From NCBI GenBank assembly GCA_963676835.2, contig CAXXFF010000002.1, forward strand, positions 416,001 to 480,000: a stretch of DNA of 64,000 bases, in the 5' to 3' direction. Shown here piece after piece: positions 4,769-10,268 of the stretch. This DNA is from Marispirochaeta sp. (GTDB lineage: Bacteria; Spirochaetota; Spirochaetia; JC444; Marispirochaetaceae). Both the position numbers and the translations under genes were made by a program. Under the pieces are notes generated by a model. The model had not been told where the DNA came from and ran no database searches. It saw only the letters and a list, made by a program, of their open reading frames with translations. Every line of letters starts with the position of its first letter. The stretch's first letter is position 1.

Positions 4769-5063
4769 CGACCGCCACAGATTCGATGACTTCAGCCGTT
4801 TCTTCAAGGCCCTGGGTGACCCCAGCAGGCTCGAACTGGTTCAGCTCCTCTGTGCAGCCCCGGAGGGGCTGACGGTAAAAGCTTTAATAGAAGAGGTTCC
4901 CATAAGCCAGTCCACCGTCAGTCAGCATCTCCGGGTATTGAAGGATGCCGGCATTATCCGTGGTCAGCGTCAGGGAACCTCAACCTGTTATATTGTAGAC
5001 CAGCCCCGCATAGAGGAGCTGATCTACCGCATTAAAAACGAGATAGGACCTATTCTGTCTTGA
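4761..5063 (+). CDS. ArsR/SmtB-family transcriptional regulator
   Basis: FKALGDPSRLELV..SQSTVSQHLRVLKDAGII. ATG at 4761 with AGGAG RBS; overlaps the upstream stop. Confidence 0.9.
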   Translation: MNSDRHRFDDFSRFFKALGDPSRLELVQLLCAAPEGLTVKALIEEVPISQSTVSQHLRVLKDAGIIRGQRQGTSTCYIVDQPRIEELIYRIKNEIGPILS

Positions 5064-7479
5064 GAGGATAGCCTGCCTTTTCCATAATCTTGATCAACTG
5101 GTTCTGAGCCTGCTCCAGGAACTCTCCCGAAAGGGTTTTTTCCGGATCAAAGAAGACCGCCCTCAGGGTTATTGCCCTTCTGCCGTCGGCCATGGGGAAA
5201 ACATCCGCCACGGAAACACCGGTCAGTTCTTTCATTTTCAGCTTTCCCGCCGCCCGCAGCATCAGTGCCGCCTGAGCATCCTTCTCCGCAATTACGGTAA
5301 AGTCGAATACGGAGTGAGGAAACCTCGGCAGGGGCGTATAGCTGGTCCGGTCAGGCCGGTCATCATTCTCAAAACTGGAGAGATCAAGTACCAGAAGCGT
5401 ACAGTATCCCTTGGCTTTAAAGCTCCGCATGGTTAGAGGATGAACAGTGGTCAGAAGACCGACTGCAGCGCCCTTAACCTGTATATCCAGGGTTTCGTAG
5501 GGATGCAGCCCGGACCAGTCCCGGGGGACCGCACTGTTGGGCCGTTTGCTGTTGGGCTCTTCAAGGCGGAAGGGAAGCCTGAGAAATCTGAGCAGCCGGT
5601 CTGCCGTATTGGCGGCATCCATAAAGCGGGAAGCCTGCCGGTCGTAGAAGGCCGCAACCAGAAAGTTCTTTTCCACCGCAAAGTCGCTCTCCCCGGGAGC
5701 GTAGCTCCGTCCCAGTTCAAACATTGAGAAATTGCTGTAGTGCCTGGTGTTTGCGGCGGCAGCCTCCAGAAAGCCCGGAACCAGACTTGGACGCATCAGA
5801 CCCATATCCTTGGTAAGGGAGTTCACCAGCTGGAGCTTTTCGCTCTGCCCCGGCCAGCCAACCTTTGCAAGCAGATCCGAACCGATCAGGGGATAGGTGA
5901 ACACCTCGTGGGCACCGGCATTAAGGACCATAAAATCCTGAACTGCCCGTTCCACCTTCTTGGGATTGGGAATCTCCACGGATTCAACCTTCCATTGCGG
6001 CGGCTGGGAAGGGATCTGGTTGTAGCCGTACATCCGGCCGATCTCTTCGATCAGGTCTGCATCACACTCAACATCCTTGGTGGCACGGAAACTGGGAACC
6101 TTGACCGAGTAGCCCCCGTCCATCTCAGTTACCTCGAAATCGAGGGAGGTAAGTATGGATTTAACCTTATCCGCAGTCATGCTGCAGCCCAGAAGCTTTT
6201 CAATATCAGCATGTTTCAGCTCAATTACCGGCTGCTTCCAGGCATCCAGGTCGAGACCGTCATACTCGAGATTTCCTTCAACCTCCGCACCGGGGTTAAG
6301 CTCCAGGAGCAGTTCGAGAATTCTCAAAGCAGTAGGCTTCAGAGCCATGGGATCCAGGCTCTTCTCATAGCGCAGGGAGGAGTCGGTCCGAAGTCCTATC
6401 CGGGTGGAACTTTTGCGCACATCCACATCGACAAAGTTGGCAACCTCGACAAAAACCTCAGTGGTATTTTCCGTAACTCCCGAGTTGAGTCCGCCCATAA
6501 TACCCGCAATTACCAGAGGCTTCTCGGTATCGGCAATTACCGTATCTTCCGCTATAAGCTTGCGGGGTTGTTCATCGAGGGTAACAAACTCCTCTTCCCG
6601 GCCTACCTGGCGGACAATAATCCTGCCGCCTTCGATGGTGCTGCGGTCAAAGATGTGGTTGGGCTGCCCCATTTCCAGCATTACAAAGTTGGAAATATCG
6701 ACAATGCTGTTGATGGGCCGCATACCGCAGTCAAGCAGCCGTTTCTGCATCCATTTGGGGCTTTCTCCAACGGTAATACCCTTTACGGTATAGCCGTAAT
6801 AGGCCCGGCAGTAGGAGGCAGGTTCAACGGTTATGGTAACGGGAGATTTTCCTGTGCCGAATTGCTTCAGCATCTTACCCTGCCACTCCTTCGAGAAGGG
6901 CTTTTTCCGGGGCGCATCAAAAGCGGCGGAAAATTCTCTGGCCATGCCGTAATGACCCCATAGATCCGGCCGGTGAGTAATGGATTTGTTATCAATATCA
7001 AGCACAACCGAAGGGCTGGTTTCCAGGTACTCCGCCATGGGAGTTCCCTTTGCTGCATCGGCATCAAGTACCATCAGCCCTTCATGGTCTTCAGAGAGGC
7101 CAAGCTCATCCTCGGCACAGAGCATACCTTCAGAGAGGATTCCCCGGATCTTTTTCGGCTCCAGGGTAAAGCCTATGGGAAGGGTGGTGCCGATAGGCGC
7201 GTAGGGAACCTTCATGCCGATTTCGCAGTTCGGCGCTCCGCAGACAACCCGGCCCTTTCCGGCACTGCCCGCATCGTAGGATACCAGCCTGAGTTTATCC
7301 GCATCGGGATGTGGTTCTATGGCGGTAATTTCCGCTACAAAGGTCTCTTCAAGCACCTTTCCTGTTTCTACAACTTCCTCAACCTCGCAGGTTGAGAGGG
7401 TAAAACGCTCGCCCAGTTCGTGGGAACTCAAGCGGGGAAGGTCTACAAATTCCTTAATCCATTCCATGGAAATTTTCAT
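5050..7479 (-). CDS. pheT: Phenylalanine--tRNA ligase beta subunit
   Basis: HPDADKL, VVCGAPN, SEGMLC, HRPDL, DLIEEIGRMYGY motifs; 809 aa; follows pheS. Confidence 0.97.
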   Translation of the reverse strand: MKISMEWIKEFVDLPRLSSHELGERFTLSTCEVEEVVETGKVLEETFVAEITAIEPHPDADKLRLVSYDAGSAGKGRVVCGAPNCEIGMKVPYAPIGTTLPIGFTLEPKKIRGILSEGMLCAEDELGLSEDHEGLMVLDADAAKGTPMAEYLETSPSVVLDIDNKSITHRPDLWGHYGMAREFSAAFDAPRKKPFSKEWQGKMLKQFGTGKSPVTITVEPASYCRAYYGYTVKGITVGESPKWMQKRLLDCGMRPINSIVDISNFVMLEMGQPNHIFDRSTIEGGRIIVRQVGREEEFVTLDEQPRKLIAEDTVIADTEKPLVIAGIMGGLNSGVTENTTEVFVEVANFVDVDVRKSSTRIGLRTDSSLRYEKSLDPMALKPTALRILELLLELNPGAEVEGNLEYDGLDLDAWKQPVIELKHADIEKLLGCSMTADKVKSILTSLDFEVTEMDGGYSVKVPSFRATKDVECDADLIEEIGRMYGYNQIPSQPPQWKVESVEIPNPKKVERAVQDFMVLNAGAHEVFTYPLIGSDLLAKVGWPGQSEKLQLVNSLTKDMGLMRPSLVPGFLEAAAANTRHYSNFSMFELGRSYAPGESDFAVEKNFLVAAFYDRQASRFMDAANTADRLLRFLRLPFRLEEPNSKRPNSAVPRDWSGLHPYETLDIQVKGAAVGLLTTVHPLTMRSFKAKGYCTLLVLDLSSFENDDRPDRTSYTPLPRFPHSVFDFTVIAEKDAQAALMLRAAGKLKMKELTGVSVADVFPMADGRRAITLRAVFFDPEKTLSGEFLEQAQNQLIKIMEKAGYPLKTE

Positions 7480-7504: not shown

Positions 7505-8548
7505 CTAATACGCCTTGAACTGTGAAGCAAACCGGAGATCTCCGGAACGCAGGTGCCGGATATTGTCTATTCCGTAGCGCATCATCACCAGCCGGTCCCA
7601 TCCCATGCCGAAGGCAAAGCCCGAGTATTTTTCAGGATCGATATTGCCGTATTCAAGCACCCGGGGATGCACCATTCCGCAGCCAAGGGCTTCCACCCAG
7701 CCTACCTGCTTGCAGACGGAACAACCCTCGCCGCCGCAGAGAAGACACTTGTAATCGAGCTCAAAGCCCGGCTCAACAAAGGGGAAATACCCAGGCCGCA
7801 GTCGGACATCAACTTCCTTGTGAAAAATCTGGGAGAGCAGGGTTTTGAGAAAATGGACAAGGTTGGCTACAGAAACCCCTTCTCCAACCATCATTCCCTC
7901 AATCTGCCGGAAGGCAGCCTCATGGGATGCATCGATGGCCTCATTTCGGAATACTTCCCCGGGCCCTACAAACTTGAAGGGAGGCTTGTGCTTCTCCATT
8001 CCCCGCACCTGAATCGGCGAGGTATGGGTTCTGAGTAGATGATGCATGTCAGAGAACCAGAAGGTATCCTGCATATCCCGGGCCGGATGATTGGATGGGA
8101 TATTCAAGGCTTCGAAGTTGTAGTAGTCGCTTTCTATATGGGGACCGTCCAGGATATCAAAGCCCATGGAGAGAAAGATATCCTCCACCTCCCGGCCGAT
8201 AATAGTCAGGGGATGATAACCGGCAGATCCCAGGCCTTTATCTTTAAGTGAATCAAGAAGAGAGATGTCCTGCCATTCTGCGGCAAGCTTGCGGTCGATC
8301 TCCTCTCTTTCCATCCGTGCTGCGGTTGCATCAATCTCTTCCAGGATCTTCTGCTTCAGCTCGTTGGAACGGGATCCGATACTCTTCCGTTCTTCGGGAG
8401 TTGCGTCCTTCAGAGATTTGAGAATGTCATTCAGTTTTCCCTTTTTACCAAGGTAATCCGCTTTTATACCTGCGATATCAGCCTGAGTCGCAGCCGCGGC
8501 AATCTGGTCGGAAAATTCGGCATACAGCCCGTCCAGACGTTCCTCCAT
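7505..8548 (-). CDS. pheS: Phenylalanine--tRNA ligase alpha subunit
   Basis: NFEALNIPSNHPARDMQDTF, LRTHTSPIQ, YFPFVEP, GFAFGMG motifs. Confidence 0.98.
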   Translation of the reverse strand: MEERLDGLYAEFSDQIAAAATQADIAGIKADYLGKKGKLNDILKSLKDATPEERKSIGSRSNELKQKILEEIDATAARMEREEIDRKLAAEWQDISLLDSLKDKGLGSAGYHPLTIIGREVEDIFLSMGFDILDGPHIESDYYNFEALNIPSNHPARDMQDTFWFSDMHHLLRTHTSPIQVRGMEKHKPPFKFVGPGEVFRNEAIDASHEAAFRQIEGMMVGEGVSVANLVHFLKTLLSQIFHKEVDVRLRPGYFPFVEPGFELDYKCLLCGGEGCSVCKQVGWVEALGCGMVHPRVLEYGNIDPEKYSGFAFGMGWDRLVMMRYGIDNIRHLRSGDLRFASQFKAY

Positions 8549-8559
8549 GTGTCTCCTCC

Positions 8560-8602
8560 AAAAAAAAACGGCGGTCTCTCCGTATCCCGGAGAACCCCGC
8601 CG
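8560..8602 (-). terminator. Intrinsic terminator (attenuator) directly upstream of the pheS RBS
   Basis: Minus strand reads CGGCGGGGTTCTCCG-GGATA-CGGAGAGACCGCCG followed by T9, then GGAGGAG and the pheS ATG. Confidence 0.85.
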
Positions 8603-8626
8603 CGTTAGTCTCTGCTTACACCACGA

Positions 8627-8698
8627 TCAGGCCCGTCCGGGAATCCCCCTGCCCATAAAAAAGAAAAAAAAGCTGTAAAAAAAGAACTGCCTGTTCAT
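8627..8698 (-). CDS. Phe-rich leader peptide MNRQFFFYSFFFFFMGRGIPGRA (PheM-like attenuator peptide)
   Basis: Hand-translated: ATG at 8698, TGA at 8629-8627, 8 Phe codons in a 10-codon stretch. Lies between the promoter and the terminator upstream of pheS. Confidence 0.85.
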   Translation of the reverse strand: MNRQFFFYSFFFFFMGRGIPGRA

Positions 8699-8707
8699 GG
8701 TCCGTTC

Positions 8708-8735
8708 ATTATATCCGCAGGACCCGTACTGTCAA
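8708..8735 (-). promoter_or_regulatory. Sigma70-type promoter of the leader-pheST operon
   Basis: Consensus TTGACA (8735-8730), 16-nt spacer, TATAAT (8713-8708). Confidence 0.8.
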
Positions 8736-8882
8736 GAATGCAGCTCACACCGCGGGAGAATCCCCCGAAACCTCATCTCTGGACTTCCCCCCTTTATCTT
8801 CTCTGGAGCCCCTCCTCCATAGACCTTCCTCCATAGACCTCCTGTATAGACAAAGGCGTACGCTGTTGAGCATAGTGACTAT

Positions 8883-10268
8883 ATGATTGAAAAATTGAAA
8901 AACTCTTACTGCCTGGTCCTTGGCGGCGGCGGCGCCCGGGGTGCCTATGAAATCGGCGTATGGAAGGCCCTTCGTGAAATGGATATAGAGATTCATGCGG
9001 TGGCAGGAACCTCCGTGGGAGCCCTTAATGCGGCCTTCGTTGCCCAGAATGATTTTGAAGCCGCGGAAGAGATGTACCTCAATATTGACATCCACAAGGT
9101 GGTCAACATCCCCGATGAGTTTCTCCATCAGGGAAAAATCAGCCGTGACCTTTCCACAATGAGCCGCCTCAGCGGCTACCTGCTGGAACACCGCGGACTG
9201 GACACCTCTCCCTTAAAAGCCCTTATCGACTCTCACCTGAATGAAGAAGCTATCCGGAGTTCCGGAGTGGATTTCGCCCTGGTAACCTATAATCTCTCCA
9301 CCATGAAACCCCTGCACTGTTTCCTCGAAGATATTCCAGCCGGCCGGCTGAGCGATTTCCTCTTTGCCAGTGCTGCCCACCCCCTGTTCGGGGCAGCAAA
9401 GATAGATGAAGCAAAGCTCACTGACGGGGGAGTTACGGACAATATCCCCTACAACCTCATGAAGGAACGGGGTTACCGCCGCATTATCGCCGTTGATCTT
9501 TCCGGTATGGGATGGACCAGAAAACCGAGAACAGCAAACAGTCAGACCGTATATATAAAGAACTCCCTCAAACTGGAAGGAGTTATGGACTTTACCCCCG
9601 AGTGTTCTGCCACCGCGCTCAAACTCGGGTATCTGGACACCCTGCGCAGCTTTGAAAAAATCGAAGGTGTCCGTTACTTCATCAAAGCGGATACGTCACC
9701 CCTGAAACAGCTGAGCCGGCAGCTCGAAATGCCGGCCAACAGGGCATTGATAGAAGAAATCGCCGGAAAAATCAGAGGCGGCAAAAACCGCGAAAAGAGA
9801 AATAACGGAAAAAAAGCTGACCGCAGCCTGATTACCCCTCCCCCGCTCAAGCAGATACTCCCCGCAGAGACGGCACACCACCGTTTTCCCGGCCTGGCAC
9901 TCCTCGAATGTTCCGCTGACTGTTTAAACATACCCAGAGACCCCCTCTACTCAGTGGAAGAACTTCTGGATCTGGTGAAGGAAGGATTCAACCGGCTCCA
10001 GGCGGAGCCCTTCAATGAAAAACGGGGATTCCGGGGAATTATCCGCCGCCTGCGGCGGGAACTGAAGAAACTGAACCGGAAAGATCTGTTTCAGCTCTCC
10101 TCTGCCCGCTACGCCTCAGCTCTTAGCACGGTACTGGGAGGAAAAGACCCTTATCTCGCGGTAAAGCTCCTCAGCCCCTTCTTTCCGGAACTTCCGGCAG
10201 CCCGGCTTATGTATACTCTGTTAAATTCACCCCGCAGCAGTTTTTCTATTGACCAGTCGGATCGCTGA
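8883..10268 (+). CDS. Patatin-like phospholipase
   Basis: GGGGARG, GTSVG nucleophile elbow, DGG motif. Confidence 0.9.
   Translation: MIEKLKNSYCLVLGGGGARGAYEIGVWKALREMDIEIHAVAGTSVGALNAAFVAQNDFEAAEEMYLNIDIHKVVNIPDEFLHQGKISRDLSTMSRLSGYLLEHRGLDTSPLKALIDSHLNEEAIRSSGVDFALVTYNLSTMKPLHCFLEDIPAGRLSDFLFASAAHPLFGAAKIDEAKLTDGGVTDNIPYNLMKERGYRRIIAVDLSGMGWTRKPRTANSQTVYIKNSLKLEGVMDFTPECSATALKLGYLDTLRSFEKIEGVRYFIKADTSPLKQLSRQLEMPANRALIEEIAGKIRGGKNREKRNNGKKADRSLITPPPLKQILPAETAHHRFPGLALLECSADCLNIPRDPLYSVEELLDLVKEGFNRLQAEPFNEKRGFRGIIRRLRRELKKLNRKDLFQLSSARYASALSTVLGGKDPYLAVKLLSPFFPELPAARLMYTLLNSPRSSFSIDQSDR

Follow-up and report, generated by a model that had tools for sequence, protein, structure and literature searches.

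A Phe-codon leader-peptide attenuator predicted upstream of pheST in Marispirochaeta and its relatives among the Spirochaetia

Introduction

According to PMC1262725, classical attenuators precede pheST in gamma-proteobacteria and T-boxes are used in Firmicutes, which agrees with the background given in an earlier note on the DNA studied here. In E. coli the pheST-ihfA leader peptide pheM (b1715) comprises 14 aa and is encoded after rplT; its ATG lies about 45 nt from the -35-plus-17 position and has a weak Shine-Dalgarno (SD) sequence (-3.9). A Phe-run leader with the logic of pause, antiterminator and terminator is also described for the pheL-pheA attenuators (Rfam RF01859 Phe_leader, PMC3082878), where pheL has an SD and controls biosynthesis (pheA). 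T-boxes (RF00230) sense tRNA charging before aminoacyl-tRNA synthetase genes.

Leaderless sensors have been described as well. For Deinococcus deserti, PMC4007540 reports 14 predicted leaderless attenuator peptides, one of them before pheS; this leader comprises 19 aa, its start site is the A of the ATG, and 1450 reads were assigned to it compared to 69 on pheS in one library. Polycysteine leaderless short ORFs of mycobacteria were tested experimentally and control translation via sequestration of the ribosome binding site (RBS), as reported in bioRxiv 10.1101/834739. The Streptomyces ilvB and leuA leaders call for caution, since they looked classical and mutation showed otherwise, according to PMC1262725.

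No report of a spirochaete leader-peptide attenuator was found in full-text searches of the literature, while subscription papers and the supplements or tables of screens (PMC2965389, PMC4833913) could list some; the main text of PMC2965389 contains neither 'spiroch' nor 'pheS'. The earlier note did not know of a spirochaete system either. The abstract of the 2010 survey by Lopatovskaya et al. reportedly lists no spirochaetes.

Results and Discussion

The window, i.e. the whole analysed stretch of 64,000 nt of Marispirochaeta sp. DNA, carries pheS and pheT on the minus strand. Upstream of them, the earlier note had described a consensus promoter, a 23-aa ORF with eight Phe codons and a GC hairpin with nine U residues ending at the pheS RBS, read together as a complete Phe-sensing attenuator. 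These elements are present in the window, and the features are as follows.

8708..8735, minus strand: predicted sigma70-type promoter TTGACA-N16-TATAAT, 12/12 consensus (-35 box 8735-8730, -10 box 8713-8708)
8699..8707, minus strand: spacer of 9 nt from the -10 box to the leader ATG, from the sequence; transcription would start near 8701, leaving a 5' UTR of about 1-4 nt
8627..8698, minus strand: leader ORF MNRQFFFYSFFFFFMGRGIPGRA, 23 aa with 8 Phe codons, ATG at 8698, from the sequence
8657..8686, minus strand: control codons, 8 Phe within 10 codons (5-7 and 10-14), from the sequence and a frame test in relatives
8684..8701, minus strand: 5' strand of helix P1, over the leader start codon and codons 1-5, from the minimum free energy (MFE) structure and duplex shuffles
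8620..8638, minus strand: 3' strand of P1, from the last codons over the stop to 7 nt downstream of it, overlapping the antiterminator 5' strand, from folding
8629..8648, minus strand: antiterminator 5' strand within the leader ORF; 8648-8638 in the register conserved among relatives, 8642-8636 plus 8634-8629 in the stronger one specific to this species
8585..8603, minus strand: terminator 5' arm (8603-8588) and part of the loop, which form the antiterminator 3' strand, from folding and covariation
8560..8603, minus strand: predicted intrinsic terminator, hairpin 8603-8568 (loop 8587-8583) and U9 8568-8560, -25.2 kcal/mol
8553..8559, minus strand: pheS SD, -9.3 kcal/mol against the anti-SD, GGAGG at 8559
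7505..8548, minus strand: pheS, bacterial-type PheRS alpha subunit, 347 aa, ATG at 8548, TIGR00468 with 295.5 bits, above the cut-off
5050..7479, minus strand: pheT, 809 aa, PheRS beta subunit, at the end of the unit, TIGR00472 with 627.8 bits, above the curated cut-off

Between 7500 and 10500 the site in front of the leader is the only one with a 12/12 match to the promoter consensus. Since pheT is faced by a convergent ArsR-family gene and the leader has a divergent patatin gene on its upstream side, the transcription unit is taken to consist of leader, pheS and pheT. The divergent patatin-family gene lies at 8883-10268 on the plus strand; its upstream region (8812-8838) carries GGAGGTCTATGGAGG as a short direct repeat (two copies, minus strand) that is absent from the closest relative. 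The leader ATG, as the earlier note had stated, follows the -10 box after 9 nt and is devoid of an SD, with -1.1 kcal/mol against the anti-SD. Throughout the genome, 766 promoter-like sites (at least 10/12) were found, and a short ORF with a residue run of at least four and a terminator follows one of them only, that of the pheS leader. A simple terminator scan missed the hairpin of this leader owing to its internal loop.

Database models gave no match for the leader. The leader peptide could be assigned to no Pfam or NCBIfam family in a profile scan, and Rfam scans in gathering and E-value modes yielded no match at the leader, where a T-box specifier stem and a T-box antiterminator were absent as well. 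For RF01859 (cut-off 55 bits), the window scan and a genome search at E<=10, with 150 of 564 candidates scored, showed no match at the locus.

The distribution of the leader was investigated across Spirochaetia. At E<=1e-60, 80 of 401 genomes carry the same PheS type; the remaining 321, with no match at this threshold, presumably possess archaeal-type PheS. Upstream DNA was taken from 79 pheS loci, one gene being cut at its 5' end, and 78 could be scored, as one locus offered only 52 nt. A promoter-linked Phe leader precedes pheS in 40 of these 78 genomes, comprising 7 families and 13 genera, and its presence is all-or-none inside each of 30 genera. A terminator was called in 39 of the 40 leaders. 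Homologous leaders encode 20-29 aa with 5-11 Phe. The region ahead of the leader was inspected in 31 homologues, and 30 have a promoter of at least 10/12 there. No Phe leader occurred in 42 loci grouped by name as Bdellovibrionota-like or, in a phylum-wide search, in 25 scored loci of other Spirochaetota classes. On a quick PheS tree the leader label needs 4 changes compared to 32 in shuffles, which shows clustering only, because kin share labels.

Apart from the Phe run, the peptide sequence is not conserved among the homologues; the distance from the end of the run to the stop codon is always 2-13 codons. Two layouts can be distinguished. In the long-tail layout, to which the Marispirochaeta leader belongs, 8-13 codons follow the Phe run and the antiterminator strand lies in the ORF, and in the short-tail layout 2-4 codons follow and the strand is located just beyond the stop. 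A third layout with alternating Ser and Phe codons and a stop 2-3 codons past the run was noticed in L032, L033, L131, L134 and L138; the duplex test gave little support for its antiterminator (p=0.11 and 0.21). Two properties of the window, a leader in frame with pheS and a terminator abutting the pheS SD, are not conserved and were dropped as features.

In order to examine the reading frame without reference to ORFs, all loci in which a T-rich 15-mer comes after a promoter were collected (n=37). In all 37 an ATG occurs 8-12 nt past the -10 box, the Phe count is highest in the frame of this ATG and the frame is open for 15 codons, compared to 12 and 10 loci for the other two frames. Alignment gaps are multiples of three in 104 of 104 cases inside the leader ORF and in 10 of 63 outside, a difference partly due to ORF selection. 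This bears on the explanation that the U-rich tract itself acts on RNA polymerase, whether through pausing, slippage or the sensing of UTP, or serves as a binding site for a protein (PheRS, for instance), with the Phe ORF as a by-product. TTT makes up 183 of 249 Phe codons, runs of 7-8 T are present in the leaders and P1 hides the leader AUG, all of which would fit. The U runs are punctuated, however, the Phe count peaks in the ATG frame in 37 of 37 loci, indels in the leader ORF preserve the frame, and the sister leader before leuA uses Leu codons (3-5 CTA in each leader) instead of U runs. We consider this explanation very improbable.

Three helices recur in the leaders, i.e. terminator, antiterminator and P1. 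For the structural comparison 31 leaders were picked and 30 used; that of Desulfopila, with no promoter-linked ATG, was left out. Terminator energies range from -10 to -35 kcal/mol in the 30 leaders. The antiterminator pairs a purine-rich stretch past the Phe run with the terminator 5' arm. In a sequence-only alignment of 24 long-tail leaders, 79.3% of the cells of a 12-pair register are paired, compared to 42-63% for slid registers. Two-sided changes amount to 28 versus 7.9 +/- 3.7 in shuffles, none of 500 shuffles reaching this value, with a register chosen after inspection of the sequences and non-independent kin in the alignment. RNAalifold returned no consensus structure on the 24-leader alignment, and pairs were counted on a named structure instead. 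In shuffles of the individual leaders, the antiterminator reached p<=0.05 in 20 of 30.

The earlier note had named a 7-bp antiterminator formed by UCCCGGA (8642-8636) and UCCGGGA (8591-8585). The two segments are complementary as described, and in the window this register reaches 13 bp and, with -30.2 kcal/mol, gives the most stable fold, compared to -21.0 kcal/mol for the conserved register, which lies just 5' of it. Of the conserved register, 8648-8638 with 8599-8589, the window retains 9 of 10 pairs, and at least 8 of 10 are found in 16 of 24 homologues. The shifted register is lineage-specific, with 7/7 pairs in 2 of 24 homologues and at least 6/7 in 4 of 24. As it is rare among relatives but more stable here, the shifted register is, on these modelled energies, likely the form acting in this species and not a signature of the family.

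P1, which the earlier note had missed, is formed by 8701-8684 around the leader start and 8638-8620 around its stop. Its duplex energy in the window is -22.8 kcal/mol compared to -10.2 +/- 2.3 kcal/mol in shuffles (p=0.007), and p<=0.05 was reached in 22 of 30 leaders. Covariation of P1 was left uncounted on the alignment because its register shifts between groups.

The position of the hairpin is of relevance for the question at which level the leader acts. In the Marispirochaeta window the U tract does run directly into the pheS SD, as the earlier note had described, but this proximity is not conserved, since 20-189 nt separate the U tract from pheS in 30 homologues. A leader that senses Phe and acts mainly on translation or mRNA stability of pheS, with the terminator as a secondary element, would find a precedent in the mycobacterial leaderless Cys ORFs, attenuating ORFs that act on a downstream RBS (bioRxiv 10.1101/834739), and the adjacent SD in this genome would suit it. 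The variable distance, the retention of hairpin and U tract in 39 of 40 leaders and a covarying helix that targets the terminator arm and not the SD argue against such an output, which we regard as improbable in comparison with transcription attenuation.

The proposed switch can be outlined as follows. Transcription would start at about 8701, and a ribosome would load at the 5' AUG without SD. With uncharged tRNA-Phe it would wait at codons 5-14 and mask the first codons, so that P1 could not form. In the model, the stalled ribosome would leave 8648-8629 exposed; this strand could engage the 5' arm of the terminator ahead of synthesis of the 3' arm, resulting in readthrough. With no ribosome, or after its release, P1 would join the start and stop regions and prevent re-initiation as well as formation of the antiterminator. 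Charged tRNA-Phe would be the signal, and PheRS would therefore control its own synthesis. The amino acid of the leader matches its target, as Phe codons precede pheST and both genes score above the curated cut-offs.

The earlier note had suggested folding with ribosome-masked segments and an alignment of pheS upstream regions as checks. Transcripts were folded up to the terminator loop under a 30-nt ribosome mask. The probability that the terminator arm is sequestered was 0.93 with the ribosome at any of the eight Phe codons; between codon 17 and the stop it was 0.21-0.47, with 0.22 at the stop itself. A dependence on ribosome position was obtained in 28 of 30 leaders, and E. coli pheM as a control gave 0.94-0.97 at its Phe codons and 0.34 at the stop. 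With the full hairpin at equilibrium, however, a ribosome on the Phe codons does not keep the terminator from winning in 24 of 30 leaders, among them that of Marispirochaeta; pheM is much alike with terminator probabilities of 0.58-1.00 at its Phe codons. The switch must hence be kinetic, with a head start for the antiterminator. Without ribosome, the antiterminator is favoured at loop length (119 nt) here (0.93), unlike in E. coli (0.34). P1 is the MFE structure at 80-112 nt and loses to the antiterminator at 119 nt, so it would protect only if a kinetic trap persists, and its role as protector is putative.

The preference for termination at full length in most masked states would also be expected from a constitutive damper, where the terminator lowers pheST according to general translation speed with no specific response to Phe. 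Alternatively, the peptide or the released RNA might be the main function; attenuator RNAs can act in trans, as reported in PMC6614838. The lack of conservation outside the Phe run does not fit such functions, and the run always precedes the stop at a distance that places a stalled ribosome so as to free the antiterminator strand. Among the explanations considered we find this one the least probable.

With in-frame Phe runs in all 37 ORF-blind loci, a terminator in 39 of 40 leaders and a covarying antiterminator, the alignment of upstream regions supports the attenuator reading of the earlier note; the refuting outcome that the note had named, T-runs out of frame in relatives, did not occur. 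Its word 'complete' holds for the anatomy, and the switching stands as modelled. We therefore read the pheST leader as a ribosome-mediated transcription attenuator of the PheM type that would respond to ribosome stalling, and give this a probability of about 0.88.

The -10 box lies 8-12 nt before the leader ATG in 40 of 40 leaders, the transcription start being predicted, and the leader 5' UTR is predicted to be only about 1-5 nt long. The earlier note had likewise expected almost leaderless translation; such a start is not peculiar to this leader. In this genome, ATGs of long ORFs cluster 6-10 nt past strong -10 boxes, with 72 at 5 positions compared to 126 at 26 farther positions (p=4e-12, the 6-10 nt range having been picked after the counts were seen), and PMC4007540 annotates such a start for the D. 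deserti pheS leader. An SD was found in 5 of 83 near-promoter long ORFs compared to 66 of 113 others, whereby the near SD window overlaps the -10 box itself. Because near-promoter ATGs without SD are frequent in this genome, the leader appears to use a native initiation mode. Among the long ORFs assigned to a strong promoter, 83 of 196 have their start codon 5-12 nt past the -10 box, most often at 6-8 and 10 nt. Near-leaderless starts without SD thus look common here, far above the published spirochaete estimates; a 2011 survey gives 1.8-6.9% leaderless genes in 6 of 18 spirochaete genomes (PMC3160421).

In comparison to the described systems, the leader is closest in design to pheM, with which it shares the short ORF with a Phe run, the antiterminator strand near the stop, the terminator, the pheST target and the behaviour in masked folding. 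It differs in the ATG 9 nt past the -10 box, in pheST being its own unit, and in an ORF that continues for 9 codons beyond the Phe run and spans the antiterminator strand. The putative protector helix uses the start-codon region, whereas that of pheM uses the Phe codons. Similarity to pheM beyond the Phe run was found in 1 of 30 leaders at p<0.05 and no NCBIfam or Pfam match was obtained; homology was rejected, and both leaders likely arose by convergence. With the D. deserti leader of PMC4007540 it shares a leader peptide before pheS and predicted attenuation, a likeness by description only; that leader is truly leaderless and from another phylum, whereas 1-5 nt are predicted here. Unlike pheL (PMC3082878), the spirochaete leader precedes pheST and has no SD, and unlike the mycobacterial Cys ORFs (10.1101/834739), with which it would share the reading of a leaderless sensor ORF by a stalled ribosome, it has an intrinsic terminator.

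Further candidates were sought in the same genome. Among 46 promoter-proximal short ORFs before long ORFs, 4 have a terminator and 2 a residue run, and both occur together in the Phe leader before pheS and in a Leu leader before leuA. The latter (L220, G000:C2:831546-831650 (+), where G000 is the Marispirochaeta sp. genome) encodes 34 aa with 5 CTA codons and starts 10 nt past a -10-like box. A 12-bp helix joins its start to its stop, and its terminator is strong; folding revealed no antiterminator. Leu leaders occur in 6 of 6 genomes of the genus ahead of two leuA types (homologues L232 and L234-L237), and none was called in the seventh member of the family. The only T-box-like element of the genome precedes thrS (L129, G000:C3:417661-417985 (-)), with 75 bits for RF00230 below the cut-off of 93; the 6 spirochaete genomes covered by a 2008 survey yielded no T-box element (PMC2494555). 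Another short ORF rich in Phe (5 codons; L219, G000:C2:148274 (-)) was rejected, as it lacks a U tract and its ATG and the -10-like box overlap; it is probably due to chance. The 250-aa gene after it is a putative SAM-dependent methyltransferase.

The closest named relatives of the window PheS are from Marispirochaeta (94% and 87% identity). The same type was observed at 62-69% identity in Bacteriovoracaceae, Fibrobacterota and one Aminicenantia genome, pointing to a widely transferred PheRS clade. Desulfopila sp. IMCC35008 (L065:1041-1170) and Desulfogranum marinum (L039:195-335) each have a single pheS, of spirochaete type, which groups with the genomes carrying short-tail spirochaete leaders (SH-aLRT 100, quick trees). 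In a sample of their order, the centre genome alone among 121 carries spirochaete-type pheS (64% identity), the other 120 being at 39-47%. At the native pheS loci of the order, an ORF which we take from its sequence to be rplT-like lies upstream in 27 of 29 inspected, and the Phe leader was found in none of the 29. Desulfopila retains a short-tail leader with antiterminator and terminator, and Desulfogranum retains promoter and terminator with neither an ATG-led Phe ORF nor an antiterminator strand. These data suggest that pheST and its leader were likely transferred into Desulfopila and Desulfogranum by xenologous displacement, the direction being putative; the claim is held at likely because the AU test for Desulfobulbales as one clade is borderline (p=0.045).

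Conclusion

The pheST leader is genuine and well conserved; its kind is already known and the predicted mechanism is not new. Tentatively, and at slightly less than even odds, the findings may be combined into one picture: a spirochaete family of near-leaderless attenuators (pheST, leuA), independent of pheM, in which the start-stop helix would result in a single-use sensor, and a pheST module that would have moved into Desulfobulbales, displaced the native rplT-linked gene, works in Desulfopila and decays in Desulfogranum.

Leader-peptide attenuation, known mainly from Proteobacteria and Actinobacteria, would thereby be extended to free-living spirochaetes. One genome may combine three gauges of tRNA charging, two kinds of leader peptide (pheST, leuA) and a T-box-like element (thrS). 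The 40 natural variants offer material for studying the coupling of transcription and translation where ribosomes would load at a 5'-terminal AUG, and the Desulfobulbales loci would exemplify the movement of a regulator from one phylum to another together with an essential gene.
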